Positions 11,336 to 28,200 are shown, numbered from the stretch's first letter. The stretch: 64,000 bases of DNA from Dehalococcoidia bacterium (GCA_965219925.1 OZ244795.1:199395-263394); one strand, 5' to 3'. Notes: generated by a model not told the origin, from the sequence alone. Program-made: numbers and translations.

Positions 11336-13723
11336 TCATGATTCCTCCTGCTCCAACCTCTCCCCCATGGGCATCCGGTAGCCGACGCGAAGCTCGGTGA
11401 AGATGTACGTGGGGCTGCTTGCGTCGTCGCCCAGCTTGCGGCGGAGGTTCTTTACGGCGGTGCGCACCGGCCGCGAGTCGCCGGAGCTCCCCAGGCCCCA
11501 GACCCGTTGCAGCAGATGGTCATGGGTCAATACCAGACCGGCGTGGACCGATAGCTCGACCAGCAGCGAGTGCTCGATGGCGGTCAACCGGACCGGACGA
11601 CCGGCAACGCTCACCCTGCGTTCGGCGTAGTCGATGGTCAACTCGCCCAGCACATAGGGTTCCGTGGGTTCGGGCCGGGCGGTGGCCTCCCGCCGGCGCA
11701 GGGCCGCCCTGATCCTCGCCGCCAGCTCCGTGGGCGAGAAGGGCTTGACCACGTAATCGGCGGCCCCGGTGTCGAAGGCCCGGGCGATGACGTCGTCCTG
11801 GCCGTACACCGACAGGAAGATGACCGGCAGGTCGGCAATTTCGAAAATGCCTTTCATCAGCTCGATCCCGTCAGTCCCCGGCAGCATCAGGTCCAACAAG
11901 ACCAGGTGGGGCTTTTCCGCCTCTATGAGGCGGTACACCTCCTCCGAGTCGGCGGTCACAATCGGTGCATAGCCCAACTTGGAGAGGGCGTCGCGGACGT
12001 GCCTGAGCGCCTGCGGGTCGTCGTCCACGACGAGAATGCGCTGCTGTCCACGCTCCGACCGCCGCGAGGGGGCGGAGCGCCGGGCGGGTGCGGCTGCCGC
12101 ATCAGTCCCGGCTTCCATGACCACCGGAATCGTGAAGGTGAACCGCGCCCCCAGACCTTCTCCGTCGCTCTCGGCCCAGATGCGGCCCCCGTGGGCCTCC
12201 ACGATCCCCTTGCAGATGGCCAGGCCCAGGCCCGAACCCCCCAGACCGCGCCCCTGGTCCTCGTCGCCGGTCCGGGAGAACTTCCGGAACAGGTGGGGCA
12301 GGCGCTCGGCCGACACGCCCCGGCCCTCGTCTATGACGGAGACCGCGACGTGGAAGTCCTCCCGCACCGCGGTCACCCGGATGGAGGACGACTCGGGCGA
12401 GTGCCCGGCGGCGTTGGAGAGGAGGTTGCCCAGGACCTGGACGATGCGCCGCCGGTCCGCCATGACCCAGGGCAGGTCCGGCGGCAGGTCGATGCGGAGC
12501 TGGTTCCCGCCCCCTGCGTTCAGGAAGGCGTTCCTGGCCTCGTCCACCAGGACAGCCAGCTCCGCCGGTCCGGGAGCGACCGGCAGCGTGCCCGTCTCGA
12601 TCCGCGCCACGTCCAGCAGGTCGCTGATCAGGCCCCGCATCCGGCTGGCCTCCCGTTCGATGATCCGGTGGAACTGGCGCATCTCGGCGGGGTCCAGGTC
12701 GGGCTCGTCGTCCAGCAGGGTGGCTGCGGAGCCCCGTATGGAGGCCAGCGGCGTTTGCAGCTCGTGGCTGACCATGCCCAGGAACTCGGCCCGCAGCCGT
12801 TCCAGGTCCTCCAGGGGCGTCATGTCCTGTAGGGTCACGACCACGGACTGGACCTGACCCTCCTCCGAGTAGATGGGCGTGGCGTTGACCAGGGTGGTGA
12901 CGCTCCGCCCGTCGGGGATTTGAATGACGATCTCCTCGGCGCGCACCGTCTCACCGGCGCTGAGCGCCTGCGCCAGGGGGAACTCCTCCAGGGAAATCTC
13001 CCGCCCGTCGGCGCGCCGGAAGGTCAGCACGCCCAGGAGCTGCTCCAGAGGGCGGCCCGGCGTATGCAGGTCGTTGAAGATCCTTCTCGCCTCCCGGTTC
13101 AGCGACGCCAGGGCCCCGGTGGTGGCGTCGAACACCAGGACGCCCACCGGCGAGGTGTTGATCAGGGCCTCCAGGTCGGCCCTGGCCCGCTGTTCGTCCC
13201 GGTGCCGGCGGGCGTTGACCACGACCAGCGTCGCCTGGGAGGCGAACATCACCAACGTCTCCTCATCTTCCCGGGTGAACTCCCGGCCGCCTTCCTTCTC
13301 GGCCACGTAGAGATTGCCGACGTGCTCGCCCCGGTGACGCATCGGCGCTCCCAGCAGGGTCTTGATCGGCAGGTCGGGAAAGCCCAGCGACCGCATTTGG
13401 CTGGCGACGTCCCCGAATCTCAGGGAGCCCTGAATCGAGCTGAAGTACTCGAAGAGCGCCGGACCCTCCGGCAGGTCCAACATCCGCTGCTGCTCTTCGG
13501 GAGGCATACCGGAGGTGATGAACTCCAGCAGCTGGCCCGATTCGTCGAAGGTCGTAATCCCGCCGAAGCGGGCGTCGGTCAACGACCGGGCGCTGTCCAT
13601 GACCTCTTGCAGCACCGTGTCCGGGTCCAGGCTCTCACTGACGCGGAGGCTGGCCTCGCTCAACCGGGTCAGGCGCTCCCTTAGCGCCTCCATCTCCCGC
13701 CGGTGCTCGTCGGCTTCCTGCAT
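11336..13723 (-). CDS. fused cytoplasmic sensor kinase-response regulator: GAF-PAS-HisKA-HATPase-REC-OmpR/PhoB winged helix
   Basis: H-box SHELQTPLASIRG; G-boxes GRGLGGSGLGLAICKGIV; REC ILVVDDD..HLVLLDLMLPGTDG..KPF; C-terminal LTAIEHSLLVEL..VRTAVKNLRRKL..LRVGYRM. There is no TM segment. The start MQEADEH (ATG 13723) is preceded by GGAGGG, and the duplicated remnant at 19987-20049 supports it. Confidence 0.9.
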   Translation of the reverse strand: MQEADEHRREMEALRERLTRLSEASLRVSESLDPDTVLQEVMDSARSLTDARFGGITTFDESGQLLEFITSGMPPEEQQRMLDLPEGPALFEYFSSIQGSLRFGDVASQMRSLGFPDLPIKTLLGAPMRHRGEHVGNLYVAEKEGGREFTREDEETLVMFASQATLVVVNARRHRDEQRARADLEALINTSPVGVLVFDATTGALASLNREARRIFNDLHTPGRPLEQLLGVLTFRRADGREISLEEFPLAQALSAGETVRAEEIVIQIPDGRSVTTLVNATPIYSEEGQVQSVVVTLQDMTPLEDLERLRAEFLGMVSHELQTPLASIRGSAATLLDDEPDLDPAEMRQFHRIIEREASRMRGLISDLLDVARIETGTLPVAPGPAELAVLVDEARNAFLNAGGGNQLRIDLPPDLPWVMADRRRIVQVLGNLLSNAAGHSPESSSIRVTAVREDFHVAVSVIDEGRGVSAERLPHLFRKFSRTGDEDQGRGLGGSGLGLAICKGIVEAHGGRIWAESDGEGLGARFTFTIPVVMEAGTDAAAAPARRSAPSRRSERGQQRILVVDDDPQALRHVRDALSKLGYAPIVTADSEEVYRLIEAEKPHLVLLDLMLPGTDGIELMKGIFEIADLPVIFLSVYGQDDVIARAFDTGAADYVVKPFSPTELAARIRAALRRREATARPEPTEPYVLGELTIDYAERRVSVAGRPVRLTAIEHSLLVELSVHAGLVLTHDHLLQRVWGLGSSGDSRPVRTAVKNLRRKLGDDASSPTYIFTELRVGYRMPMGERLEQEES

Positions 13724-14026
13724 CTTCCCTCCCTGACCCGGACTGTGGACGCCACCCGGCTCCACGTCGTCAGGCGCCCGGCTGGATGCGGAGATCGGGC
13801 TTCGAGACGCCCTCGGGCAGCCGGTGTCAATTGTACCGGATCGGGCAAATACTCACAATAACATCACGGTAATAAGGGCTGATAATCACGTTGTACTCAC
13901 ATGAGTGGTTTACAATACTCACCGGGCCATAGCACAGTCCGCTTGGCCTGTATCTGCCCGTTAGAGGGGTTGTATTGGTCTGCCTTCCGCATAGGATACA
14001 AGTTGCAGTAGCGTCGGAGAGCGCAC
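13668..14026 (+). repeat. duplicated divergent-promoter module, copy 1 (includes the first 18 codons of the kinase gene)
   Basis: Aligns along its length with 19993..20344. Identity is highest over the kinase 5' end, the TCAC boxes, the -10 element and a ~100-nt leader. Confidence 0.85.
13851..13916 (+). promoter_or_regulatory. four phased TCAC direct repeats plus TACAAT -10 (Pho-box-like activator-dependent promoter)
   Basis: TCAC at 13853, 13864, 13886 and 13897 (spacing 11/22/11). TACAAT at 13911-13916 lies 10 bp after the last box. There is no convincing -35. Confidence 0.55.
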
Positions 14027-14282
14027 CGGCGGTATCCGCCGCCGTGAGGACGCGCCTCGACGAACGCAATCCTTCTACCCCCCGACGAATATCGTCACCG
14101 GATAGTCCCCCAGCCCCGGCTGTCCCCTTCCTTCGCACCGCCCACCTCCCCCGTAGTTCCGCTTGCCCGGAGCTCCCGTTCCTGAACGCGTACGGGCAGA
14201 CCGGGCGGTATCCCTTTGCCTTCCGGGCAACGTCCCTGCCCGCCGTCCAGACTTTGCAACTGCCTGAAGTGAGGTTAGCATC

Positions 14283-17200
14283 GTGAAACGCCAACTGTCC
14301 TTTGCCGTTCTTGCCGCCCTGGGAGCCTTCGCGCTCTTCGTTTTCGCCGGCGTCCCATTGCCCTACCAGGCCCAGGCCCAAGCGTCGCCGTCGGTGGCGG
14401 TCAGCCTCTCCTCCGACACCGTGGAGGAGGGATCGGCCATCGCCGTCACCATGAGCTTCAGCGGCCTGGAGTCCGACGCCGACACCGCAACCAAGGACTA
14501 CGTCTTCCGGGCCGACGTGGTGGACTCGGAGGACGGGGACGCCAACGGGTGCGAGGACCAGGCCGGAGGCTACGGCCTGGGCGTGGACCGCTACATGTGG
14601 CAGGTGGACGAAGACCCGGAAGTCCGCACCGGGAGCGTCTCCGCCGACTGCCCGGCCGGGGACTACACCCTTCGGGCCAGCATAGCGTCGCCGGAGAATG
14701 TGGAGCTGGCCTCGGCGAGAGCAAGCTTTACGGTGGCGGCGCCAGCCCCGGAACCTACGCCTGAGCCCACGCCAGAACCCACGCCGGAGCCTACGCCGGA
14801 GCCGACACCGGAACCCACGCCTGAGCCCACGCCGGACCAGGAAGACCCCGACCCGTCGGTGGCCCTGATCCTCTCCCCGGACGGCTTCGCGCCGTGGAAC
14901 ACCGAAATCAGCGTCACCATGCTCTTCGGCGCTCTGAAGGCCGACTCCGACCGGGACACCACCGACTACGTATTCCGGGCCGACGTGAAGGACTCGTGGA
15001 ACCGGGACGCCGACGCCTGCGAGGGCGGCGGCCTGGGCATCGACCGCTACATGTACCAGGTGGACCAGGACCCGGAGACCCGCAGCGGGACCATCGCCGC
15101 CGGCTGCCCCATCGGCGGCTACACCATCGAGGCCAGCATCGCCACCGAGGCCGGTGGCGTGGTGGCCTCCGCCAGCGCCGAGTTCTCGATATTCGGGCCC
15201 AGCATCGGCCTGGCCATTCCTGTCGCCGAGCAGGGGGCCGGGGGTGTCCTGACCCTGAGCTTCGGGTTTCTGGCCCCGGACGCCGACGCCGACACCACCG
15301 ACTACATCTTCCGGGCCGACGTGGTGAACGCCGACGCCTGCGAGGGCGACGGCCTGGGGGTGGACCGCCACATCCACCAGGTGGACGAGGACCCGGAGAC
15401 CCACACCGGGACCATCTCCGCCGACTGCCCGGCGGGCGACTACACCCTGGAAGCGAGCATATCGTCGCCCGACGGAGTGGAGCTGGCCTCGGCGAGCGCG
15501 AGCTTCACCATCGCGCCGCCGGTAGAAGACGACGACGACCCGCCCGTGTCCAGGCAGCAGCAGGCCATGCCGCAGGATTTCTTCCTGGACTCCGACAATA
15601 GCAGCCCGGGGGGCATCTGGTCCGACGGCACGACGATGTGGGTGACTGACTCGGACGAGAACAACAAGCTCTACGCCTACGCCCTGGCCGACGGGACGCG
15701 CCAGGACGGCACCGGCAGCACGACCAATAGGGAGTTCGCCCTGCACGCCGACAACGGCTATCCCACAGGCATCTGGTCCGACGGCACGACGATGTGGGTG
15801 ACGGACGGTAGCGACTACAAGCTCTACGCCTACGCCCTGGCCGACGGGACGCGCCAGGACGGCACCGACGGCACCACCAGCAAGGAGTTCGCCCTGCACA
15901 GCGACAACGGCAATCCCCTGGGCATCTGGTCCAACGGCTCCACCATCTGGGTGGCCGACTATGGCGACGACAAGCTCTACGCCTACGCCCTGGCCGACGG
16001 GACACGCCAGGACGGCACCGGCGGCACCACCAGCAAGGAGTTCGCCCTGCACGCCGACAACGGCATTCCCACAGGCATCTGGTCGGACGGGGCGACGATC
16101 TGGGTGGCCGACAGCGACGACGTCAAGCTCTACGCCTACGCCCTGGCCGACGGGATACGCCAGGACGGGGGCGGCGGCACAGCCAACCGGGAGTTCGCCC
16201 TGCACAGCGACAATAGCGCCGCCTTCAGCATCTGGTCCGACGGCACCACGATGTGGGTGAACGAAATCTCTGACGGCAAGGTCTACACCTACGCCATGCC
16301 GACTCCGGTGCTGACCGGGCTGACCGTCAGCCCGGGGACCCTGGATCCCGCCTTCAACAGCGACACCCTGGAGTACGCCGTCTCCGACGTGCCCCACGCC
16401 AGCGGCCGGATCACCGTCACGGCCACCGCGGAGAGCGGGGCCGACGTCTCCTATGAGGACGGCTCCGGCAACACGCTCACCGACGTTGACTCCGGCACAA
16501 CCGGCGACCAGTTCGACCTGGTCGTGGGCGAGAACGTCATCGAGGTCAAGGTGACCAAAGGCAGCCTCAGCCGGACCTACGCGCTGGCGGTCAGCCGCGA
16601 GGCCGCCGTGCCGACGAGTTTCGACCTGCACCCCGACAATAGCAACGCCAGGGGCATCTGGTCCGACGGCACCACGATGTGGGTGGCGGACTCCGCATAT
16701 TTTGAGGGCCGCCCTTATTCTGAGGAACGTGCCAGCAAACTCTACGCCTACGCGCTGGCCGACGGGACGCGCCAGGACGGGACCGGCGGCACCGTCAACA
16801 AGGAGTTCGACCTGGACAGCAACAGCATCTATCCCATCGGCATCTGGTCCGACTATAGAACGATGTGGGTGGGGGACTACTACGGCGGCCGGGTCTATGC
16901 CTACGCGCTGGGCGACGGAACCCGCCAGGACGGCATCGCCAACGAGGACAAGGACAAGGAGATAGACCCGGGACCTCACGCCGACAACGGCGCTGTCTCG
17001 GGCATCTGGTCCAACGGCGTGACGATGTGGGTGGCCGACCCCGACGACGACAAGATCTACGCCTACTCGTTGGCCGACGGAAGGCGCCAGGACGGAGCCC
17101 CCCACGCCTACGTTATCGACGGCATTCGCTACCGGTTCGACGGGAGGCTCTATGACGAGAATGCCGTCAACGAGGAGTTCGACCTGCACCGTGACAACGC

Positions 17201-18668
17201 CAGTCCCATCGGCATCTCGTCCATCGACGAGACGATATTGGTGCTGGACGACGAAGACGCCAGGCTCTACGCCTACGCCCGGGCCGACGGGACGCGCCAG
17301 GACGGCACCGGCGGCGCCGACGACTGGGAGTTCGACCTGAACGACGACAACGGCAACCCCGTGGGAATCTGGTCCAGCAACGAGAAGATGTGGGTGCTGG
17401 ACGGCGACGACGGCAAGGTTTACTCCTACACCTTCCCGATCCCCCCCATGCTGACCGGGCTGAGCGTCAGCCCGGGGACCCTGACGCCGGCCTTCGACAG
17501 CAAGACCCGGGATTACGCCGTCCCCGACGTGCCCCACGCCAGCGACCGGATCACCGTCACGGCCACCGCGGAGGGGCGCGCCCGCGTGTCCTACGAGGAC
17601 GGCTCGGGCAACTCCCTGACCGACGCCGACGCCGACGCCGCCGGCGACCAGTTCGACCTGGAGGTGGGCGAGAACGTCATCAGGATCAGGGTGACCGAAG
17701 GCGAGGTCAGCCGGACCTACGCGCTGGCGGTCAGCCGCGCCTATCACCCGTCCTTGTCTCCGCCGTACCGGTTCACCTGGAGTGATGGGGTCCACTACCA
17801 CAATTGCCAGCTTGGGCCGGAAGATAATCCGTATTGGGAGTTCTCTGTATCTACGGATTCTTCAACAACCCGTTTGGTGCAGCCGAGTGATTTAAGAAGA
17901 AGCGGACATGACGATTGTTCGGCAACGGTGCGGATCCCTCTAAGCTACTTCCCATTGGGTTCGTGCGACCTCAACGCGGACAATTTGTGCATTACGGTCC
18001 GTCACACCGAGTTGTTCGTGGACCATAATACTGGACGTTATACCGCCTCGGTTTCCCGTCCCGTTGTTGTCGAGTTGATTCCGGCTTCCACCGACGCCAC
18101 GCTGCGCGCCCTGGCACTCAGTGGGGTTGACTTCGGCGCCTTCGCGTCAACCACCACGGAGTACGCCGCCAGCGTCGCCCACGCCGTCGCCGAAACCACG
18201 GTGACTCCGGCGGTCAGCGACTACAGGGCTGCCTACGCCGTCAAACTGGGCGGAGTGGTCGACGCCGACGGGACCGTCCCCCTGGCCGAGGGCGAGAACT
18301 TCATCGCCGTGGAGGTCACGGCCGAGGACGGGGAGACGGCTCAGACCTACAGCGTGACGGTCACCCGCGCCGCGCCTCTCGCCGCGCCGGGCCGGCCGAC
18401 CGGGGTGGTGCCGGAGCCGGGGAAGGTGACCCTGGACTGGGACGACGTGGACGGGGCCACCGGCTACCAGGTGGGCCTGTGGCGGCAACCCAATCTGGTG
18501 CCCCTGCCCAGCGATGCCATGCCTGGGGTGACGGTGCAAATGAACGGTTCCGGCGCCACGCTTACCGGCCTGCCTGCCGAATGGTCGCACTACTGGCTCA
18601 CGGTCCGGGCCAGCAACGACGGCGGCGCATCCGGCTGGTCGGATTGGCTCACCCTGGAAAACGGCTGA
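14283..18668 (+). CDS. giant secreted repeat protein (1461 aa): 3x novel two-Cys domain, PEPT linker, ~43-aa propeller-like repeats, cadherin-like domains, C-terminal FN3
   Basis: GTG start with GAGG upstream. Signal peptide AALGAFALFVFAGV..AQAQA. Three ~110-aa DYxFRADV..CE..DRYM..CPxGxYT modules (nt 14385-15518). Repeated IWSDGTTMWV.D...KLYAYALADGTRQDG units. LTGLTVSPGTLDPAFNSDTLEYAV-type cadherin-like beta-sandwich modules. The tail KVTLDWDDVDGATGYQV..VRASNDGG is FN3. Confidence 0.9.
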   Translation: MKRQLSFAVLAALGAFALFVFAGVPLPYQAQAQASPSVAVSLSSDTVEEGSAIAVTMSFSGLESDADTATKDYVFRADVVDSEDGDANGCEDQAGGYGLGVDRYMWQVDEDPEVRTGSVSADCPAGDYTLRASIASPENVELASARASFTVAAPAPEPTPEPTPEPTPEPTPEPTPEPTPEPTPDQEDPDPSVALILSPDGFAPWNTEISVTMLFGALKADSDRDTTDYVFRADVKDSWNRDADACEGGGLGIDRYMYQVDQDPETRSGTIAAGCPIGGYTIEASIATEAGGVVASASAEFSIFGPSIGLAIPVAEQGAGGVLTLSFGFLAPDADADTTDYIFRADVVNADACEGDGLGVDRHIHQVDEDPETHTGTISADCPAGDYTLEASISSPDGVELASASASFTIAPPVEDDDDPPVSRQQQAMPQDFFLDSDNSSPGGIWSDGTTMWVTDSDENNKLYAYALADGTRQDGTGSTTNREFALHADNGYPTGIWSDGTTMWVTDGSDYKLYAYALADGTRQDGTDGTTSKEFALHSDNGNPLGIWSNGSTIWVADYGDDKLYAYALADGTRQDGTGGTTSKEFALHADNGIPTGIWSDGATIWVADSDDVKLYAYALADGIRQDGGGGTANREFALHSDNSAAFSIWSDGTTMWVNEISDGKVYTYAMPTPVLTGLTVSPGTLDPAFNSDTLEYAVSDVPHASGRITVTATAESGADVSYEDGSGNTLTDVDSGTTGDQFDLVVGENVIEVKVTKGSLSRTYALAVSREAAVPTSFDLHPDNSNARGIWSDGTTMWVADSAYFEGRPYSEERASKLYAYALADGTRQDGTGGTVNKEFDLDSNSIYPIGIWSDYRTMWVGDYYGGRVYAYALGDGTRQDGIANEDKDKEIDPGPHADNGAVSGIWSNGVTMWVADPDDDKIYAYSLADGRRQDGAPHAYVIDGIRYRFDGRLYDENAVNEEFDLHRDNASPIGISSIDETILVLDDEDARLYAYARADGTRQDGTGGADDWEFDLNDDNGNPVGIWSSNEKMWVLDGDDGKVYSYTFPIPPMLTGLSVSPGTLTPAFDSKTRDYAVPDVPHASDRITVTATAEGRARVSYEDGSGNSLTDADADAAGDQFDLEVGENVIRIRVTEGEVSRTYALAVSRAYHPSLSPPYRFTWSDGVHYHNCQLGPEDNPYWEFSVSTDSSTTRLVQPSDLRRSGHDDCSATVRIPLSYFPLGSCDLNADNLCITVRHTELFVDHNTGRYTASVSRPVVVELIPASTDATLRALALSGVDFGAFASTTTEYAASVAHAVAETTVTPAVSDYRAAYAVKLGGVVDADGTVPLAEGENFIAVEVTAEDGETAQTYSVTVTRAAPLAAPGRPTGVVPEPGKVTLDWDDVDGATGYQVGLWRQPNLVPLPSDAMPGVTVQMNGSGATLTGLPAEWSHYWLTVRASNDGGASGWSDWLTLENG

Positions 18669-19277
18669 GCGCCATACGCTGGAGGGGCGGGGCCAGGGTG
18701 GACGCCGCGCCGCCTGCCCCGAGGATGCCGGCGGCGCGGTTGGGCCAGCCGACCGGCAGCATCGTCGCTGGGCCCTGACCTGCCCGCCTGGTTAGGCCTG
18801 GCCGGGCAACACGGCCGGGCCGCCAGCGCGGCTGGCGCCGGCGGTTAAATCCGAAGGAACATCCGGGTTGCGGACCCCGCTGCGCCAGGACGGAAAGCAA
18901 GGCCAGCGAGGGCGCAGAACCGGTCGTCAGCGCCGCCGGCTAAGGCAGCTTCGCCTCTCTGGCGCATGGTAATTCAGGACAACAAGAAAGCCCGCGTACC
19001 TGGACGAGCGGGGGAGGACACCGCCCGTAGCGGTGTCCTCCCCTTTGCCTTGGTCCTGGCGGCCCGCGCCGGCCGGTCCCTCCTCCCGCCTCCGTTCCAC
19101 GCTGAGCGCCCACTCGAACCCGGACAGAGACGAAGGCTTGGTCTCGCCGTTGCGTCCCTGGGGCTGGGCCGGTTCCCCGGCTATGAACCCGGCCCGGGAG
19201 AACACCGACTGCTGAGGTTGGTGGATTCGGCGCAGCCGAAGCCATCGCCGGCCGGGTTCCGGGGCAGCCACCCAGGG

Positions 19278-19673
19278 TTACGCCGTGGCAGCCTGCCCCC
19301 CGGCGCCGCCCTGGACCCTGGTCAGGACCCCCAGGATTATCCACGCCGGCAGCGAGGCCACCAGGGGGTAGGCGACGACGCCGATGGGACCGAAAAGCCC
19401 TCCGATGATTACACCCCAGGCGGACACCAGTCCCAGCACGACGGCACAACCGTAGGCCAGGATGCGGGACAGGACCTGGGGGCGGCGGTGCATCAGGCGC
19501 ACCGCCAGGGTCAGTGAAATCCCAACCGGCCATGCCAGCCCGAACAACCACAAGACGTCAGCCGCGCCAGGGCCGGTCCCGAATCCGTCAATGCCGAACC
19601 GGAGGAAGGAGATAACCAGCACCAGGGCCGGCAGCCAGAGGGAGAATAGGATAGTACCGATGGCGCTCTTCAT
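19278..19673 (-). CDS. small polytopic membrane protein (131 aa)
   Basis: AGGAGG lies 8 nt upstream of ATG 19673 (MKSAIGTILFSLWLPALVLV). Four hydrophobic segments. Confidence 0.65.
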   Translation of the reverse strand: MKSAIGTILFSLWLPALVLVISFLRFGIDGFGTGPGAADVLWLFGLAWPVGISLTLAVRLMHRRPQVLSRILAYGCAVVLGLVSAWGVIIGGLFGPIGVVAYPLVASLPAWIILGVLTRVQGGAGGQAATA

Positions 19674-19821
19674 GTTCATCACCTCCTGACGTGTGGAATA
19701 AGCCCTTCCCCAGCGCCGGGGAGAATAAGAATACCTTGCGCATGGGGTACTACGTTGGCCGGCCGCCCGCCGGATTGGGGCAGTCCTGCCAAGCCGGAAA
19801 GGGCGGAGGCAATTCCGGGCA

Positions 19822-19850
19822 ACAAAAAAAGCCCGCACACATGGGCGGGC
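19822..19850 (-). terminator. intrinsic terminator (minus strand)
   Basis: The minus strand reads GCCCGC-CCATGTGT-GCGGGC followed by TTTTTTT. Related short copies are at 18967-19012 and 30075-30117. Confidence 0.5.
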
Positions 19851-19986
19851 AGGGTGCGCCAGGAAGCGCGTAGGCTGAAAGTTCCAGCCGTGGAACCCGG
19901 CCAGGAGTGGGCCGGTGGCCAGGGAAGCAGGCGTTAAGGCCAGAGGCGGAACCGTGTCTGAAACCTTCCCGGCAATGCGGCGGAGG

Positions 19987-20049
19987 TCACCTGTCAAGCC
20001 GCTCCCTTAGCGCCTCCATCTCCCGCCGGTGCTTGTCGGCTTCCTGCAT
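19987..20049 (-). pseudogene. 20-codon remnant of the kinase-regulator 5' end
   Basis: MQEADKHRREMEALRERLDR-stop versus MQEADEHRREMEALRERLTR at 13723. Confidence 0.85.
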
Positions 20050-20344
20050 TTCTCCACCTCAATTGGGCTGTGGCAGACTCGAGGTTCGCTGTCTTCAGGA
20101 ACCGGCTGGATGCAGATCGGACTTCGAGGCGCCTTCGGCCAGCCGGTGTCAATTGTACCAGTCTGGCGAGATACTCACACTACATCACGGAAATAGAGGT
20201 TGATAATCACATTAAACTCACATAGATAGTTTACAATACCCGCTGGGCTATAGCGCAGTCCGCATGGTCTATGCCCGCCTGTTAGAGGGGTTGCATGTCT
20301 AGCCTTGTGCATGGAATACAAGTTGCAGTAGCGTCGGAGAACGC
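19993..20344 (+). repeat. duplicated divergent-promoter module, copy 2
   Basis: See 13668..14026. Confidence 0.85.
20173..20237 (+). promoter_or_regulatory. four phased TCAC direct repeats plus TACAAT -10, second copy
   Basis: TCAC at 20175, 20185, 20207 and 20218 (spacing 10/22/11). TACAAT at 20232-20237. Confidence 0.55.
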
Positions 20345-20372
20345 TTGGCTGCTCCGGTTATCGCTCGTTGTC

Positions 20373-23300
20373 ATGGCCGCCGTCGTCGTCGTGCCGGTCA
20401 TGCTCTTCGGCGGCTCGCCCGCCGCCGCGCAGCAGGCAGTCCCGGACCAGCCGGAGGGACTGACCGGCAAACTGCTGGACTACCTCGTCGTCGGGCTGGA
20501 CTGGGACGACGCGGAAGGCGCGACCTCGTACCAGGCGCAGTACTGGGATACGACGGGAGACAGCCCGGCCTGGGCGGAGGCGCCCGAGGCCGAATACGAT
20601 GGCTCCTCAGCCGTGATAAGCGGTCTGCCGGACCAGCGCTACTACTACTTTCAGGTTCGCGCCGTCAACGACGCCGGGGCGTCGAAGTGGTCGGACTTCG
20701 TCTTACTGGCGGGCCCCGACACGCCGACAGACCCATCTACTCCGACACCGGAACCTACGCCGGAACCTACGCCCGAACCTACCCCGGAGCCTACTCCCGA
20801 ACCCACGCCGAAGCCGGGTATCTGTGACCGCACGTATCAGGTTCGTGAAGCAATCGAGAGTAATGTGTTCAGGAATCTGATGAATTCCAGGGGTAGCAGA
20901 CCGGGATGCCAAGACATTACCGACGCTCAACTGGCGCGTATCGACAACCTTTATCTTCCGGGTGTTGGGCACCTTAAGATCGGTGATTTGGCTGGTCTCA
21001 CCGGAGTCAAGTATCTCCACATGGACCATACCGGACTGAGCTCCCTGCCGCCGGGCGTCTTTGATGGACTCGGCAGTTTGGAACGGTTGCACCTAAATCA
21101 CAACGCGCTGAGCTCCCTGCCGCCGGGCATCTTTGATGGACTCGGCAGTTTGGAACGGTTGGAACTGAACAACAACGCGCTGAGCTCGCTGCCGCCGGGC
21201 ATCTTTGATGGACTCAGCAGGTTGTATTGGTTGTACTTGGGCAATAACGCGCTGAGCTCGCTGCCGCCGGGCATCTTTGATGGACTCGGCAGTTTGGAAC
21301 GGTTGGAACTGTACAATAACAGGCTGAGCTCGCTGCCGCCGGGCGTCTTTGATGGACTCGGCAGTTTGGAAGACTTGTATTTGAGGAATAACCAAATAAG
21401 CTCATTGCCGCCGGGCGTCTTTGATGAACTTGGCAGTTTGGAACGGTTGTACTTGAGCAATAGCGGGCTGAGCTCCCTGCCGCCGGGCGTCTTTGATGAA
21501 CTTGGCAGTTTGCGATCGTTGGATCTGTCCAATAACCGACTTAGCTCGCTGCCGCCGGGCGTCTTTGATGAACTTGGCAGTTTGTATTGGTTGCAGTTGA
21601 GTGATAACCAAATAAGCCCGCTGCCGCCGGGCGTCTTTGATGAGCTTGGCAGTTTGGACCGGTTGTACTTGGGCAATAACGGACTGAGCTCGCTGCCGCC
21701 GGGCATCTTTGATGAACTTGGCAGTTTGTATTGGTTGTACTTGAGCAATAACGGACTGAGCTCCCTGCCGCCGGGCATCTTTGATGAACTTGGCGGTTTG
21801 GGAGAGTTGTACTTGAAAAATAACAGACTGAGCTCCCTGTCGCCGGGCGTCTTTGATGGACTTGGCAGATTGAGAGTGTTGAATTTGCGCAATAACAGAC
21901 TAAGCTCCCTGCCGCCGGGCATCTTTGATGAACTTGGCAGTTTGCCTTGGTTGTACTTGAGCAATAACGGACTGAGCTCCCTGCCGCCGGGCATCTTTGA
22001 TGAACTTGGCAGTTTGCGTTGGTTGGTTCTGTCCCATAACCAATTGAGCTCCCTGCCGCCTCGCCTGCTCCCCCGGCATGTAGAGTGGCCCACGGATTAT
22101 TTTGGTGTTGTGTCCTCCGGTACTGTGTACCTGGTTGGCAACCGGCTGACTGAGCTGCCGGATGCGCTTTTCGAGGTCGAAAACCTGAGGTTGAAAACCT
22201 TGCATCTGGAGGACAATCCTGGCAGCCCATTCACCTTCAGCATGGAAGCCGAGGCGATAAGCCAGAGCGTTGACGATGCGGGCATCCACACCGCGCGGGT
22301 GCGCTACAAGGTAGCCCAGGGGGCGCCGGCAATGATGACAGCAGCGCTGGAGGTCAGCGGCGGCGCGGCATCCACCGCATCGGTAACCATAGGGTCAGGG
22401 AGCGTCTACAGCGATGAGATAGTGGTGACGCAGAGCGAAGCGGGTCAGCCAGTTACGCTCACATTGCAGAAAGTGTCGCCCCATATCCCATCACCATTTA
22501 CTCCTGGCTCTATCCTTAATACATGGCCTGAATTTGATTATATTGGATTCTTTGGGGTCGGGTTCGCCGCGGGCGCCCCTCTCACCCTCTTTGCCGATTC
22601 ATCGCTGCCTCCGGTTGAACCGGAGGCGCCCAAGGGCATCTGCGGGCGGACGCCGCAGGTGCGGGACGCGATTTTAGGCAAGCTGCCCGACGTCAGCGAC
22701 TGCGCGGCGGTGACGGATGCCGACCTGAACGGCATCACCGGGCGTCTGGACCTGAACGTACAGGAGACCGGGGAGGAGATGACGGCGCTGCAGCCGGGAG
22801 ACTTCGCGGGTCTCACGAACCTGCAAATTCTGTACCTGACCGACAACTCCCTGGAGACGCTGCCCGCAGACATCTTCGAAGGCCTGGCCGCCCTGACGAC
22901 GATCCAGCTGGAGAACAACGGGCTAAAGGAACTGCCCGAGGACATCTTCGACGGTCTCGGCAGTCTGACGGGGCTGCGCCTGCAGAACAACAAGCTGAGC
23001 ACGCTGCCCGAGGAGGCCTTCGACGGTCTGACGAGCCTGGAGGGGCTGTTCCTGACGCGGAACCAGCTGAGCGAGCTGCCCGAGGACGTCTTCGACGGTC
23101 TGACCGGTCTGAAGACGCTCTACCTGGATGGCAACGAACTGAGCGCGCTGCCCGAGGAGGTCTTCGACGGTCTGACCAGCTTGAGGGAGTTGCGCCTGAA
23201 CAGCAACTCGCTGAGCGGACTGCCGGCCGGTGTGTTCGAGGGTCTCGCCAACCTGAGGAGCCTGGTGCTGGAGCACAACGACCTGGAGACGCTGCCCGCC

Positions 23301-24977
23301 GGTGTGTTCGCAGGACTCACCGGGCTGGAAAAGCTGCTTTTGGGCGGCAAGGAGGCGCCCTTCACGCTCACGGCGGAGTTGGAGCGCCGGGGCGGCGACG
23401 CCGTGGCGGTCAAGGTGGTGGAGGGAGCGCCGTTTGCGATGGCGGTCAAGCTGTCGGCGGAGGGCGGCACGCTGTCCAGCGAGACGGTTACGGTTGAAGC
23501 GGGGAGCCTGTCCAGCGAAGAGATTAGCGTTGCGCCGGCTGCTGAAGGGGGGACGGAGGTCACCGTCAGGGTGGAATCGGCGGAGTTCACCGGGGTGGTG
23601 GTGTCAGTCGGGGGAGTCGAGGGCTATAGCGGCATCCAAACCGGCCTGGGGCAGCCGCTGACGCTGACCTTCTCCGCGCCGGATTCCAAAGACGGCTCAA
23701 CGATAAAGGGCCCGGGGCCGACGGTGGCGATTGCCCTGTCCCCGTCCGGCCCGGTGGAGCCGGGCACTGCCATCGGCGTCACCATGAGGTTCAGCGGCCT
23801 GGAGTCCGACTCGGACACCGGCACCACCGATTACATCTTCCGGGCCGACGTGAAGGACTCGGAGAACGGGGACGCCGACGCCTGCGAGGACCAGGCCAAT
23901 GGCTACGGTTTGGGCGTGGGGCGGTACATGTGGAAGGTGGACGAGGACCCGGAGGTTCGCACCGGGACCATTTCCGGCGACTGCCCGGCCGGGGCCTACA
24001 CCCTGTGGGCCAGCGTCTCCTCCCCCGACAACGTGGAGTTGGCCTCGGCCAGCGCGAGCTTCTCGGTCCGAGAACCGGAGACGCCGCTCTCCAAAGACGC
24101 CGCCCTGGACGGGCTGACGCTGAGCGGGGTGGACATCGGAACCTTCGACCCGGACACCAGCGGGTACGCCGCCGACGTGGACAATGACGTGACGGAAACC
24201 ACGGTCACTGCTACGGTGAACGGCGGAGGCGCGAGCTACCTGATCAAGCTGGACGGGGTGGCCGACGCTGACGGGGTAATCCCCTTGGCCGTGGGCAGCA
24301 ACGTCATCACCATCCAGGTCACGGCGGAGGATGGGGAGACGACCAGGACCTACACCGTCACGGTGACCAGGGCCGCGCCGCCGCTTTCAAGCGACGCCAC
24401 CCTGAGCGGGCTGGAACTGAGCGGGGTGGACATCGGAGGCTTCGATCCGGCAACCACCGACTACACCGCCAGCGTTGCCAACGACGTAACGGAAACTACG
24501 GTGACGGCGGCGGTGAACGAAGACGGGGCGACCTATCTGGTCAAGCTGGACGGTGTTGCCGATAGCGGCGGGACCGTCTCCCTGGCCGAGGGAAGCAACG
24601 TCATCGCCATCGAGGTCACCGCCGAGGACGGAGAGACGGCGAAGACCTACACCGTAACCGTCACCAGGGCCGAGCCGCCACTCTCCAAAGACGCCACCCT
24701 GAGCGGGCTGACGCTGAGCGGCGCGCCCTTCGCCTTCGACCAGGCCATCGAGAGCTACGAGGTCAGCGTCGGCCACGAGGTGGAGCAGACCACCATAACG
24801 GCGGAGACCAACGACGAAGCCGCCAGCTATGAAGTGGCGCTGGTGCTTTCCGCGAGCTATGAAGACGGAACCGTCGGCCTGGCCGTGGGCGCCAACCTCA
24901 TCGTTCTCCTGGTGACGGCTGCGGATGGGGAGACGACGAAGACCTACACCGTCACTGTCGCCAGGGCCGAGGCCTGA
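20373..24977 (+). CDS. giant secreted LRR protein (~1534 aa): FN3, PEPT linker, two LRR blocks, novel two-Cys domain, 4x cadherin-like
   Basis: ORF 20295..24977. The first 26 codons lie in the conserved leader, so the start is placed at MAAVVVVPVMLFGGSPAAAQQ (signal peptide). It has 14 near-identical 24-aa LSSLPPGxFDxLGSLxxLxLxNNx repeats, and a second block capped by GICGRTPQVRDAILGKLPDVSDC. The two-Cys domain is at nt ~23718-24070. Four LSGVDIG.FDP.T..Y modules follow. Confidence 0.9.
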   Translation: MAAVVVVPVMLFGGSPAAAQQAVPDQPEGLTGKLLDYLVVGLDWDDAEGATSYQAQYWDTTGDSPAWAEAPEAEYDGSSAVISGLPDQRYYYFQVRAVNDAGASKWSDFVLLAGPDTPTDPSTPTPEPTPEPTPEPTPEPTPEPTPKPGICDRTYQVREAIESNVFRNLMNSRGSRPGCQDITDAQLARIDNLYLPGVGHLKIGDLAGLTGVKYLHMDHTGLSSLPPGVFDGLGSLERLHLNHNALSSLPPGIFDGLGSLERLELNNNALSSLPPGIFDGLSRLYWLYLGNNALSSLPPGIFDGLGSLERLELYNNRLSSLPPGVFDGLGSLEDLYLRNNQISSLPPGVFDELGSLERLYLSNSGLSSLPPGVFDELGSLRSLDLSNNRLSSLPPGVFDELGSLYWLQLSDNQISPLPPGVFDELGSLDRLYLGNNGLSSLPPGIFDELGSLYWLYLSNNGLSSLPPGIFDELGGLGELYLKNNRLSSLSPGVFDGLGRLRVLNLRNNRLSSLPPGIFDELGSLPWLYLSNNGLSSLPPGIFDELGSLRWLVLSHNQLSSLPPRLLPRHVEWPTDYFGVVSSGTVYLVGNRLTELPDALFEVENLRLKTLHLEDNPGSPFTFSMEAEAISQSVDDAGIHTARVRYKVAQGAPAMMTAALEVSGGAASTASVTIGSGSVYSDEIVVTQSEAGQPVTLTLQKVSPHIPSPFTPGSILNTWPEFDYIGFFGVGFAAGAPLTLFADSSLPPVEPEAPKGICGRTPQVRDAILGKLPDVSDCAAVTDADLNGITGRLDLNVQETGEEMTALQPGDFAGLTNLQILYLTDNSLETLPADIFEGLAALTTIQLENNGLKELPEDIFDGLGSLTGLRLQNNKLSTLPEEAFDGLTSLEGLFLTRNQLSELPEDVFDGLTGLKTLYLDGNELSALPEEVFDGLTSLRELRLNSNSLSGLPAGVFEGLANLRSLVLEHNDLETLPAGVFAGLTGLEKLLLGGKEAPFTLTAELERRGGDAVAVKVVEGAPFAMAVKLSAEGGTLSSETVTVEAGSLSSEEISVAPAAEGGTEVTVRVESAEFTGVVVSVGGVEGYSGIQTGLGQPLTLTFSAPDSKDGSTIKGPGPTVAIALSPSGPVEPGTAIGVTMRFSGLESDSDTGTTDYIFRADVKDSENGDADACEDQANGYGLGVGRYMWKVDEDPEVRTGTISGDCPAGAYTLWASVSSPDNVELASASASFSVREPETPLSKDAALDGLTLSGVDIGTFDPDTSGYAADVDNDVTETTVTATVNGGGASYLIKLDGVADADGVIPLAVGSNVITIQVTAEDGETTRTYTVTVTRAAPPLSSDATLSGLELSGVDIGGFDPATTDYTASVANDVTETTVTAAVNEDGATYLVKLDGVADSGGTVSLAEGSNVIAIEVTAEDGETAKTYTVTVTRAEPPLSKDATLSGLTLSGAPFAFDQAIESYEVSVGHEVEQTTITAETNDEAASYEVALVLSASYEDGTVGLAVGANLIVLLVTAADGETTKTYTVTVARAEA
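21036..22043 (+). repeat. 14 tandem 72-bp coding repeats (LRR units) with high nucleotide identity
   Basis: Exact 72-bp period. Long identical runs such as GAGCTCCCTGCCGCCGGGCATCTTTGATGAACTTGGCAGTTTG recur. Confidence 0.9.
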
Positions 24978-25274: not shown

Positions 25275-28200
25275 ATGACAGTATCCCCTCTTCGTATCCG
25301 CTGGCTCGCAGTCGTGGCAGTTCTGGCCAGCGCCGTCGTTCTAAGCGCCTGTAGCGACGATCCGGCTCCCACGCCGGAGCCAACGGCTGCTCCGACCGCC
25401 GCGCCAACGGACACCCCCACACCAGAGCCAACGGCTACTCCGACTGCCACTCAAACGGACATGCCTGCTCCCGCCGCAGTTGATAGGGCCGCGCTGGTGG
25501 CGCTCTACGAAGCGACGGATGGAGCCAACTGGACGAGCAACGACAACTGGCTGAGCGACAGGCCAATCGGAGAATGGCACGGCGTAATCGCTGACCTCAG
25601 CGGGCGCGTCACCGAGCTGTCCCTCTCCGAGAACGAATTGAGCGGTCAAATACCGGCGGAGTTGGGCAGCCTCTCCAACCTGGAATCCCTGTGGCTCGGG
25701 TATAACCAGTTAAGCGGTGATATACCGGCGGAGTTGGGCAGCCTCGCCAACCTGGGATGGCTGTGGCTCGAGAATAATCAGTTGAGCGGTGAGATACCGG
25801 CGGAGCTGGGCAACCTTGCCAACCTGGTAGAGCTGAATTTCTCTGTTAACCAGTTGAGCGGAAAGATACCGGCGGAACTGGGCAACCTCGCCAGCCTGGA
25901 ATGGCTATGGCTCTGGGATAACCAGTTGAGCGGAGAGATACCGGTGGGGCTAGGCAACCTCGCCAACTTGGAAAGGTTGTGGCTCAATGATAACCAGTTG
26001 AGCGGCGAGATACCGGCGGAACTGGGCAACCTCACCACCCTGGGATCACTGGACCTCGATGGAAACCAGTTGAGCGGCGAGATACCTGGATATCTGGGCA
26101 GCCTCGCCAACCTGTACACGCTCGCCCTGGGGGATAACCAGTTGAGCGGCGAGATGCCGGAGGAACTGGGCAGCCTAGCCAACCTGCAATCGCTGTACCT
26201 CGCCGGTAACCAGCTGGGCGGGTGCGTGCCGGGCAGCTTACGAGACCAGTTGGATATGGACTACTCCGACCTGGGAGGGCTGCCGTTCTGCGGCGCCGCA
26301 TCCGAGCCCGCAGTCGTCGAGACGGACCGGGCGGCGCTGGTGGCGCTCTACGAAGCGACGAACGGAGCCAACTGGACGAGCAACGACAACTGGCTGAGCG
26401 ACAGGCCAATCGGAGAATGGCACGGCGTAATCGCTGACCTCAGCGGGCGCGTCGCGGAGCTATACCTCGACTTTAACCAGTTGGGCGGAGAGATACCGAC
26501 GGAGGTGGGCAACCTCACCAACCTGGAATGGCTGGGACTTGGCAGGAACCAGTTGAGCGGAGAGATACCGGGGGAGTTGGGCAGCCTCGTCAACCTTCAA
26601 TACCTGCTCCTCTCTGAGAACCGGTTGAGCGGCGAGATACCGACGGAACTGGGCAACCTCTCCAACCTGAAATGGCTGGGATTTGCCAGAAACCAGTTGA
26701 GCGGGGAGATACCGGAGGAGTTGGGCAACCTCGTCAACCTGCAAGAGCTGTTCCTCTCTGAGAACCAGTTGAGCGGCGAGATACCGGCCGAGTTGGGCAA
26801 CCTTCCAAACCTACTAGTGCTGTATCTCTCCGGCAACCGGTTGACCAGGTGCCTACCCGATGGGTTGGGAGAGATACAGGAAAGTGACCTCAACATCATG
26901 TCCATTCGTCCGCCCTTGTGCGGAACAACCCCGGCGAGCATGATCGCGGCGGGCGGCACAATCGCAGTCCTTCAGTCTCTTGAGTCACTGTCGGACGCTC
27001 ATCGGAGAGCTGGCACAGAGTTTGAGTGGTCGCAGGTGTCGGGTCCGCCCGTTGAACTCCTCGATGCGAATGCTGAGTATGCTCGGTTCACGGCCCCGGT
27101 GGTCGTTGAAGACACCATCTTGGTGTTTGTGCTGAAAGCCGAATATCAGAACGACGTCACGGTGATCGATACTGTGCCGATACGCGTCGTTCCCGTGAGA
27201 ACGGAGAGGGTGTTGGCCGCTTTGGTGGACTTTCTTGACGTGGACCCTGAAGAAAGACCCTTTACCAGGGAGGATATCGTCAAGCTCCTTGAGGATAATG
27301 ACGATTCTTTGAGCAATTTCATTGCTCTGACCTCGCGCAATTTGGTGAGCGTTGACTTTGACGTCCTGGACTGGATCACTGTCGACAAGGACAGGACGGG
27401 CTATCCACCGGATGGTGGTACGGTCGTAGAGGACGTCGTCAGCAGGATGTCCGACTTTGCCGACTTGAGTCAGTATGACAAGGTGATGCCGTTGATCTTT
27501 CCTCTCGACCAAGGGTATCCCGGGTGTCAAGCCTACCTGGATAAGGTCCACTGGGACACGCCAAACGGCCGCTTCGAGCTAGGCGCCTCGTGGCTGAGCG
27601 GATATGACATGGGTTGTGTAAACAAAGGCAGGATAGCACACGAGTTTGGACACACATTCGGGTTCGTGCATTCGTACTTGATTGACTGCGCTAAAGAGCC
27701 GCCCTTGCCGGCGAGCATGACTGACCCCACTGACAAGAACAGCTCCTGCTTCTCTCACGGATACGACGGAGATACATATGTGGGGAAAGAGGACGCTGGG
27801 ATTGCCGCCAACATGGACTTTGACATGCTGGGGGGCGACCATCGATACGAGAGCTTCTTTCCGGTTCACTTCCACGCAACATGGCAGGATCGAGCCGGAT
27901 GGTTGGCCGAAGCCCAGGTCGTTGCTGCTAACAGCGCCGGCGAGTACTCGCTCACCGCTTTGGAATCCCTTACTCCCACACCGAAGGCTGTGAGGATATT
28001 CTTGGGAACCGATCACAAGGGTAACTCCCTATACTATCTGATCCAACATCGTGAGTTCAGCCCGTGGTCCATGGGTTCGCCGGACTCCGGGCAACAGGTG
28101 GAGTCTTCGTGCCAAGCCGATGTGAGGCTTGAAGCCTCCAACATATTTGAGCGTGGGTTATTCAATACTTACTTTTTCAGTGGGTATATCGACGGCGTGA

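Follow-up and report, generated by a model that had tools for sequence, protein, structure and literature searches.

The sensor-regulator locus and its box arrays

This analysis concerns a 64,000-nucleotide stretch of DNA from a Dehalococcoidia bacterium (GCA_965219925.1, OZ244795.1:199395-263394), referred to in its entirety as the window, and within it an array of four phased TCAC repeats. The array is located between the minus-strand gene of a fused sensor-regulator and a divergent plus-strand gene for a giant secreted protein (giant gene A). This position is denoted site A; a second array, site B, precedes another plus-strand giant gene (giant gene B). The features at site A are:

11336-13723, minus strand: sensor-regulator gene, a single open reading frame (ORF) of 795 amino acids with GAF, PAS, HisKA, HATPase_c, REC and OmpR-type winged-helix (wHTH) domains (Pfam)
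13830-13835, minus strand: TACAAT, -10 of the predicted sensor promoter, inside the invariant block CAATTGTACC
13851-13857, plus strand: box 1, ACTCACA; reads TTGTGA at 13853-13858 on the minus strand, the -35 of the predicted sensor promoter
13862-13868, plus strand: box 2, CATCACG, 11 bp past box 1; TCACGG invariant in the close clade
13884-13890, plus strand: box 3, AATCACG, 22 bp past box 2; TCAC at about -37 to -34 from the predicted start, the usual place of a -35
13895-13901, plus strand: box 4, ACTCACA, 11 bp past box 3; the 7-mer ends 9 nt and the TCAC core 10 nt before the -10
13911-13916, plus strand: TACAAT, -10 of the predicted leader/giant gene A promoter, without a -35; predicted start at about 13923
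13964-14286, plus strand: Shine-Dalgarno sequence GAGGGG (13964-13969) and leader ORF from TTG 13975 to the stop at 14284-14286, 103 amino acids
14283-18668, plus strand: giant gene A, 1461 amino acids, signal peptide, cadherin-like beta-sandwich domains

The corresponding features at site B are:

19987-20049, minus strand: remnant of the sensor gene start, 20 codons (MQEADKHRREMEALRERLDR), then a stop
20152-20157, minus strand: copy of the minus-strand -10 TACAAT
20173-20222, plus strand: boxes ACTCACA (20173), CATCACG (20183), AATCACA (20205) and ACTCACA (20216)
20232-20237, plus strand: TACAAT, -10 of the predicted promoter; predicted start at about 20244
20295-24977, plus strand: giant gene B, 1560 amino acids, signal peptide; fn3, LRR and cadherin-like domains

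Direct reading of the plus strand places the TCAC cores of site A at 13853, 13864, 13886 and 13897, with TACAAT beginning 10 nt past the last TCAC, and those of site B at 20175, 20185, 20207 and 20218. The coordinates of TCAC and TACAAT given for both sites in the initial annotation of this DNA are exact. Its phased spacing of 11/22/11 applies to site A, whereas site B reads 10/22/11, as one nucleotide has been deleted between its boxes 1 and 2. The annotated 7-mer A[C/A]TCAC[A/G] fits three of the four boxes at each site but not box 2 (CATCACG). The reported absence of a -35 before TACAAT was reproduced, as no sequence placed 16-18 nt from the -10 matches TTGACA at more than 1/6 positions at either site. 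All pattern counts in this work were paired with shuffle and opposite-strand controls. Exactly two such arrays exist in the window, A and B, both on the plus strand, and none was obtained in 300 dinucleotide shuffles of the whole window or when the AT-rich core was shuffled locally 20,000 times. A chance origin of the two arrays is excluded. An extra TACTCAC at 13916-13922, exactly 22 bp past box 4, overlaps the end of the -10 and the predicted start. As a functional fifth box it was rejected, being present at site A only, with no copy in B or in any orthologue, and it is treated as chance or a local peculiarity.

Sites A and B are connected by a segmental duplication of about 355 bp, identified by self-comparison of the window (13671-14024 versus 19997-20344, 80% identity). 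It takes in the start of the sensor gene (20 codons) and, past the promoter, the ribosome-binding site together with the initial ~16 codons. As both sites lie within one duplication, their agreement is expected and constitutes weak evidence alone. Still, the TCAC cores are identical at 16 of 16 positions, compared to 36 of 55 other promoter positions (p = 0.003). The earlier description of a layout that recurs in diverged surroundings is thus correct in that the boxes are better kept than the spacers, but the two sites it compared are duplicates at 80% identity.

Domain composition of the sensor-regulator

The start codon of the sensor-regulator, ATG at 13723, was judged from relatives of ~795 amino acids. 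In agreement with the OmpR/PhoB-type domain assigned to the end of the divergent gene in the initial annotation, Pfam finds Response_reg (E = 5.5e-25) and Trans_reg_C (E = 2.2e-17) in the same ORF. The catalytic and phospho-acceptor residues are all present (H-box His320, REC Asp611 and Lys660). The protein has no membrane segment (maximum 19-residue hydropathy 1.45), and its N-terminus comprises a coiled coil followed by GAF and PAS domains. The nearest solved structures to the REC-wHTH part are MtrA, KdpE, PrrA, BaeR, RegX3, RpaA and M. tuberculosis PhoP, with E = 3.5e-37 for MtrA and ~1e-24 for PhoP. Trans_reg_C is the DNA-binding domain, and HTH_18 was not found in the protein by Pfam. No NCBIfam model reached its cut-off for the sensor-regulator; the PhoR and PhoB equivalogs remained far below theirs (179 versus 334 bits and 148 versus 296 bits).

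Conservation in orthologous and family loci

With one genome scanned per species, at least 589 relatives of the sensor-regulator were obtained, of which the best 80 loci were used (loci are referred to by L numbers). These are mostly from metagenome-assembled genomes (MAGs) of Dehalococcoidia, others being labelled Latescibacterota, Gemmatimonadota, Acidobacteriota, Caldilineaceae and more, and several paralogues per genome are common. Loss of the boxes in orthologous loci had been named in the initial annotation as speaking against its reading; the array is kept in place in all seven orthologous loci examined (73-94% protein identity). In the four closest orthologues (L001, L002, L003 and L066, 92-94%) it is found at the same place with 11/22/11 spacing. 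Among the three loci fetched by exact protein look-up, L083 (92%) and L081 (86%) keep the TCAC boxes, and L082 (73%) carries T[CT]A[CT] half-sites. An alignment of six sequences, i.e. A, B and four orthologous loci, reveals the invariant blocks CAATTGTACC (which includes the sensor -10 and is unchanged in 6/6), CTCACA, TCACGG, AATCAC, CTCACA and TA..AT. Invariant columns amount to 16/16 within the boxes and 22/55 elsewhere (p = 7e-6).

At larger distances, the arrangement TCAC-N7-TCAC-N9-11-TAnnnT is found in 20 of the 80 family loci, directed away from the sensor gene and placed 100-170 nt before its start codon, as compared to 0.01 in shuffles and 1 in the opposite orientation. When any half-site is allowed (half-site-N6-half-site-N8-10-TAnnnT), the same zone and orientation yield 53 of 80 loci, compared to 3.4 +/- 1.7 in local shuffles and 10 on the opposite strand. 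Throughout the family, TAnnnT follows the last half-site at a fixed distance of 9-11 nt. These counts bear on the notion that the boxes are functionless, a by-product of the recent 355-bp duplication and AT-rich intergenic composition. The weakness of A-B agreement between 80%-identity duplicates is all that speaks for it; the arrays never arise in shuffles, the boxes are better kept than the spacers, and the layout recurs in 53 of 80 distant loci. We regard this notion as hardly credible, and the comparative data refute it as far as computation can.

Two observations on the architecture of the region may be added. In L081, TCACGGCGGTAGTCTA has been duplicated locally in tandem, some 150-190 nt away from the sensor start, and a fifth box now lies beside the -10, which shows that the operator region evolves through small duplications. 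Moreover, a GAAAa..GGCtTGA motif lies between the distal and proximal box pairs (window 13868-13884, GGTAATAAGGGCTGATA). It is present at the equal position in most family loci and kept across paralogues regardless of the half-site, includes a -35-like TTGAYA (see below), and may represent a shared UP-like element or the site of a common factor.

A predicted bidirectional promoter region

On the minus strand, the promoter scan identified TTGTGA-17-TACAAT (13858 to 13830) as the sensor promoter, the -35 of which is the reverse complement of box 1. Promoter hexamers were scored at 55 sites, comprising 53 family loci as well as A and B. A TAnAAT-type hexamer occupies the sensor -10 position in 36 of them. 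The sensor-side -35, formed by box 1, matches TTGACA at 3.64/6 positions on average (4/6 positions in 25 of 36 loci), compared to 2.16/6 on the giant-gene side. The intergenic region thus appears to be a compact bidirectional control region in which a sigma-70-like sensor promoter is combined with an activator-type giant-gene promoter, boxes 3 and 4 lying at about -37 and -26. That the regulator might switch on "possibly itself", as the initial annotation put it, can hereby be sharpened: as the -35 of the sensor promoter coincides with box 1, autoregulation is plausible.

The dual role of box 1 also allows for a narrower reading, in which only boxes 3-4 are the regulator site and boxes 1-2 are kept as the -35 and upstream region of a constitutive sensor promoter, with no autoregulation. 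On the minus strand, box 1 reads TTGTGA at 17 nt from TACAAT and is perhaps kept just as a -35, TTGnnn is found at the place of box 1 in almost every family locus, and box 2 is lost in the L006 clade. Conversely, the distal segment follows the half-site of its locus (four copies of CTAAC in L058 and of TTTAC in L043; 0/5000 permutations, see below), unlike a pure -35, and TCACGG of box 2 is invariant in the window clade though it lies outside any -35. We consider a site restricted to boxes 3-4 unlikely.

Two further promoter candidates were rejected. A plus-strand promoter ATAACA-17-GATAAT (13858-13886) is not kept at its key positions in orthologues (GTTAAT, GACAAT), and the 70%-identity clade lacks it. 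The other candidate is a conserved TTGAYA-like hexamer directly before box 3, which reads CTGATA in A, TTGATA in B, TTGACA in L066 and TTGACT in L006. With 26-27 nt to the -10, it is too distant to be the -35 of a sigma-70-type promoter, and no conserved -10 was found 17 nt downstream of it. Terminator scans around sites A and B found none.

Half-site diversity and its probable link to the adjacent regulator

The family loci differ in the half-site they carry:

TCAC(A): window clade, L006 clade, L020, L026, L038, L050, L061
TTGAT: L014, L016
GATAC: L015, L018
CTAAC: L058
TTTAC: L043
CACAC: L052, L074

Such differences occur even within one genome, as in L066 (TCAC) and L014 (TTGAT), both on OZ244792.1. 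Paralogue-specific half-sites of this kind cannot be explained by a sigma factor or a shared factor. The predicted recognition helix differs likewise, reading SRPVRTAVKN in the window clade, SRRVRTAAKQ in the L006 clade and EPWLVR[ND]VVKR in three loci with [G/C]ATAC sites. Distal and proximal half-sites of a locus agree at 7.15/10 positions, compared to 5.93 +/- 0.17 after random reassignment of the distal segments to other loci (0/5000 permutations; 41 dereplicated loci). Identity of the recognition helix correlates with similarity of the site (r = 0.26, 0/5000), also when the rest of the protein is controlled for (partial r = 0.19, 5/5000); the correction for relatedness is imperfect in these tests and the effects are of modest size, albeit all in the same direction. 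As the half-site co-varies within the locus and with the recognition helix, the data support a link of the boxes to the adjacent regulator and not to a sigma factor or common factor.

In a rival reading, the adjacent regulator is a bystander and the boxes are read by another, separately encoded OmpR-family regulator or an alternative sigma factor. Several OmpR-family proteins use TCACA-type repeats, site B would work without an adjacent regulator gene, and some genomes hold several paralogues with the same half-site. The architecture, however, travels with the sensor family through at least six labelled taxa, always 100-170 nt from the start codon and in one orientation, and the half-site changes by paralogue, also within one genome, in correlation with the recognition helix and beyond the reach of any sigma factor. 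A bystander role of the neighbouring sensor-regulator is therefore rated as very improbable.

Single genomes with more than one cassette were noted (L009/L012, L013/L022, L020/L026, L014/L066, L008/L065 and L001/L031). L013 and L022 share both half-site and recognition helix, so that cross-talk is possible, whereas the paralogues L066 (TCAC) and L014 (TTGAT) differ and would be insulated from each other.

Proposed mode of action

In the initial annotation, the fused sensor-regulator was put forward as the direct switch of the giant genes. Conservation in 7/7 orthologues, the layout in 53/80 loci against 3.4 in shuffles, and half-site co-variation all lend support to this idea, and we consider it probable that the four TCAC boxes are the operator through which the adjacent sensor-regulator activates the giant genes. 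Binding, its dependence on phosphorylation, activation over repression, and the transcription starts are inferred from the sequence. Class-II activation of the PhoB type relies on direct repeats near the -10 of a promoter without a -35. In the proposed mechanism, the HisKA-mediated kinase dimer would supply two winged-helix domains per pair of molecules, and His320-to-Asp611 phosphotransfer would lead to head-to-tail binding on direct repeats 11 bp apart, i.e. boxes 1-2 and boxes 3-4. With the box pairs 33 bp apart, or three helical turns, both would be bound on the same face of the DNA. In place of the missing -35, boxes 3-4 would recruit RNA polymerase to TACAAT at 13911-13916 as for a PhoB-type class-II activator, resulting in activation of the leader and giant gene A. 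With no sensor gene to itself, site B would be served in trans, giant gene B being activated through the duplicated copy. As boxes 1-2 overlap the -35 of the sensor promoter (TTGTGA), their occupancy would modulate expression of the sensor too.

The same protein could act on the same boxes with the opposite sign. As a repressor, it would block RNA polymerase from boxes 3-4 (about -37 to -22) at a promoter for which the -10 suffices, and signal-dependent release would de-repress the giant genes. The boxes do overlap the core promoter, namely the -35 to -10 spacer. Moreover, many family promoters carry TG just upstream of the -10 (TGTAGAAT, TGGTAAAAT), so that -35-independent initiation is possible, and DNA-binding domains tethered to a kinase dimer may bind unphosphorylated, an issue discussed for the hybrid systems of Bacteroides (PMC11253607). 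The promoters of the window itself, on the other hand, lack the TG extension (TTTACAAT). Head-to-tail repeats ~10 nt before a -10 without a -35 are the textbook geometry of a PhoB-family activator, and a strict register of half-site and -10 over 53 loci is needed for contact between protein and polymerase but not for occlusion. Repression is accordingly judged a rather unlikely mode.

Several observations weigh against an activating operator of four boxes, in addition to the overlap with the core promoter and the possible upkeep of box 1 as a mere -35. Box 2 is degenerate (ATTCGG) in the 70%-identity L006 clade, hence occupancy of all four boxes is not a general trait. At site B, a 20-codon remnant is all there is of a sensor gene. 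Same-genome paralogues with identical half-sites (L013/L022, L020/L026) imply that the adjacent protein may not be the sole binder. The predicted start at ~13923 is 360 nt from giant gene A, and a closer promoter is possible. Finally, the loci share phylogeny, the tests are crudely dereplicated and the Mantel correlations modest.

Comparison with known systems

With a repeat spacing of 10-11 bp, a -10 without a -35, and a neighbouring protein with REC and winged-helix domains, the array displays the sequence-level features of an operator of the OmpR/PhoB family. The label "Pho-box-like" used in the initial annotation is appropriate for the geometry, but not for the half-site, which is not CTGTCAT, or for the sensor, which is a soluble GAF-PAS protein and not PhoR. 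As far as its sequence allows to judge, the likeness of the array to a Pho box is confined to the architecture. Shared with the Pho box and PhoB of Escherichia coli are the 11-bp direct repeats that replace the -35 and end ~10 bp before the -10, the (here predicted) head-to-tail binding of a winged-helix response regulator, and more than one dimer site on the same helix face. Differences concern the half-site, CTGTCAT with a TGTCA core in the Pho box compared to A(C/A)TCAC(A/G) here, and the phasing, as Pho box pairs are contiguous whereas an extra turn separates the pairs here (11/22/11). PhoB is partnered with membrane-bound PhoR and the Pst system, while the present regulator is fused to a soluble GAF-PAS kinase. 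The Pho regulon consists of phosphate-acquisition genes, whereas the targets here would be giant secreted proteins with cadherin-like, LRR and fn3 domains, with no phosphate link.

Closer in half-site are two actinobacterial regulators. M. tuberculosis PhoP binds TCACAGC-N4-TCACAGC as a head-to-tail dimer (PMC4832192), and the MtrA box consists of direct repeats of GTCACAgcg (PMC4285127). The TCACA core and the 7 + 4 bp repeat geometry are common to these sites and ours. MtrA and PhoP are stand-alone response regulators with separate membrane kinases, in contrast to the fused protein described here, and the identity of its REC-wHTH part to them is at family level only, with no NCBIfam equivalog cut-off reached.

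A sensor, histidine kinase, receiver and AraC-type DNA-binding domain in one polypeptide are known from the hybrid two-component systems (HTCS) of Bacteroides (PMC11253607, PMC3404733). The all-in-one polypeptide and the expansion into paralogues, each beside its own presumed target locus, are shared features. However, HTCS are transmembrane proteins with a periplasmic sugar sensor, their output domain is of the AraC/XylS type (HTH_18) instead of an OmpR-type winged helix reading direct repeats, and they control polysaccharide utilisation loci instead of giant adhesin-like neighbours. Judged by its soluble character and the winged helix in place of the AraC domain, the sensor-regulator is not a member of the HTCS family. 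Full-text literature on hybrid or fused two-component systems, searched in one library, yielded the AraC-type proteins of Bacteroides and no soluble OmpR-type architecture or operator.

Predicted giant target genes and the leader ORF

Among the 78 loci with enough flanking sequence, a divergent ORF of at least 800 amino acids starts within 1.3 kb in 34, and a divergent ORF with a signal-peptide-like N-terminus is found in 43. Five divergent giants were scanned and contain cadherin-like, cadherin, fn3, Calx-beta, PPC or subtilase domains. With divergent giants at 34/78 loci, the pairing of regulator and giant secreted protein is thus a family trait and not a peculiarity of the window.

The leader ORF connects the promoter of site A to giant gene A. 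Its stop overlaps the GTG start of giant gene A (GTGA, 14283-14286), an overlap that indicates translational coupling. A GTGA or ATGA overlap and an open frame are also found in L001, L002 and L083. At site B, the copied first ~16 codons of the leader ORF form the first ~16 codons of giant gene B and are fused directly to the signal peptide of this LRR giant. The leader ORF has no NCBIfam match. An Rfam scan of 13000-21500 at E <= 1 gave two sub-threshold chance hits, neither in the leaders, and no known riboswitch or leader family.

Within the leader ORF, a C-run at 14078-14083 reads as poly-proline. Its length differs between loci:

Window: C6
L001: C9
L082: C11
L002: C12
L083: C17
Other family loci: up to C22

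Poly-C tracts occur in L001, L002, L005-L016, L023, L028, L033, L037, L048, L082 and L083, ~300-365 nt from the sensor start, and across 1.1 Mb of family loci, C/G runs reach a length of 8 nt or more in 30 cases, 24 of which fall in the leader zone on the same strand. In the window (C6), L001 (C9), L002 (C12) and L083 (C17), the leader ORF is open through the C-run to the overlapping stop; it is truncated in L082. A simple frame switch at the poly-C tract would fit the window clade (four in frame, one truncated) but was rejected, as in the L006 clade the coupling frame is open for only ~30 codons upstream of the giant gene. The observations suggest a translated poly-proline leader with the role of a contingency or attenuation device; slipped-strand contingency, Rho loading and ribosome stalling are candidate functions of the poly-C tract.

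A hairpin CGGCGG-loop-CCGCCG is also present in the leader (14027-14041) and recurs in the leaders of the L006 clade. It lies within the leader ORF (coding APA..AA), with a conserved stem and a variable loop of 3 nt in the window and 6 nt in L006.

A possible widespread cassette and its implications

The combined data support the description of a classical OmpR-family operator placed on an unusual, widely expanded soluble one-polypeptide two-component system beside giant secreted-protein genes. As the cis element is classical, the value would lie in the system and its targets and not in a new regulatory principle. More tentatively, and with somewhat more doubt than confidence, the loci may represent a class of self-contained cassettes, so far undescribed and greatly expanded, in Chloroflexota (Dehalococcoidia) that have not been cultivated and in other phyla. 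Each cassette would comprise a soluble one-polypeptide two-component system with OmpR-type output, its own bidirectional promoter with four half-sites diversified together with the recognition helix, so that paralogues are insulated, and a giant secreted adhesin- or eukaryote-like target reached via a translated and coupled leader ORF with a hypervariable poly-C tract, resulting in two-layer control of host-interaction proteins. If true, signal-dependent activation would be combined with a stochastic or translational gate, be it phase variation or a stalling/Rho attenuator, on surface proteins involved in host interaction.

A role in contact with hosts or particles is widely assumed for the giant LRR, cadherin-like and fn3 proteins of symbiont-type bacteria that have not been cultivated; as these organisms cannot be grown, insight into the control of such proteins has been hampered. 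Several of the cassette-bearing MAGs are presumably sponge symbionts, judging from their names. A 60-bp operator and a soluble regulator of 795 amino acids would provide a cis/trans pair testable outside the native organism, and the family as a whole would yield a "code" relating half-sites to recognition helices. For MAGs, half-site-N6-half-site-N10-TAnnnT facing away from the regulator gene may serve as a target-prediction rule. The all-in-one two-component design, known in Bacteroides with AraC output, would be extended to the OmpR/PhoB winged helix, where, as in Bacteroides, one may ask what keeps DNA-binding domains off the DNA when they are attached to a kinase dimer.

Additional features around site B

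Giant gene B is followed, after a gap of 297 nt, by a third large gene (25275-28652; 1125 amino acids, LRR, lipoprotein-type signal LSAC). No box array was found in the gap, and the gene may belong to the transcription unit of giant gene B.

As for the duplication, the sensor-proximal part of the orthologous locus L002 is closer to copy B than to copy A, which suggests recombination between the two copies. Downstream of the sensor-start remnant at site B lies a small minus-strand ORF (19278-19700), the product of which is hydrophobic and resembles a membrane protein (MNMKSAIGTILFSLWLPALVLVISF...), with no Pfam or NCBIfam match. The duplicated minus-strand promoter, GTGTGA-17-TACAAT, may drive this ORF.

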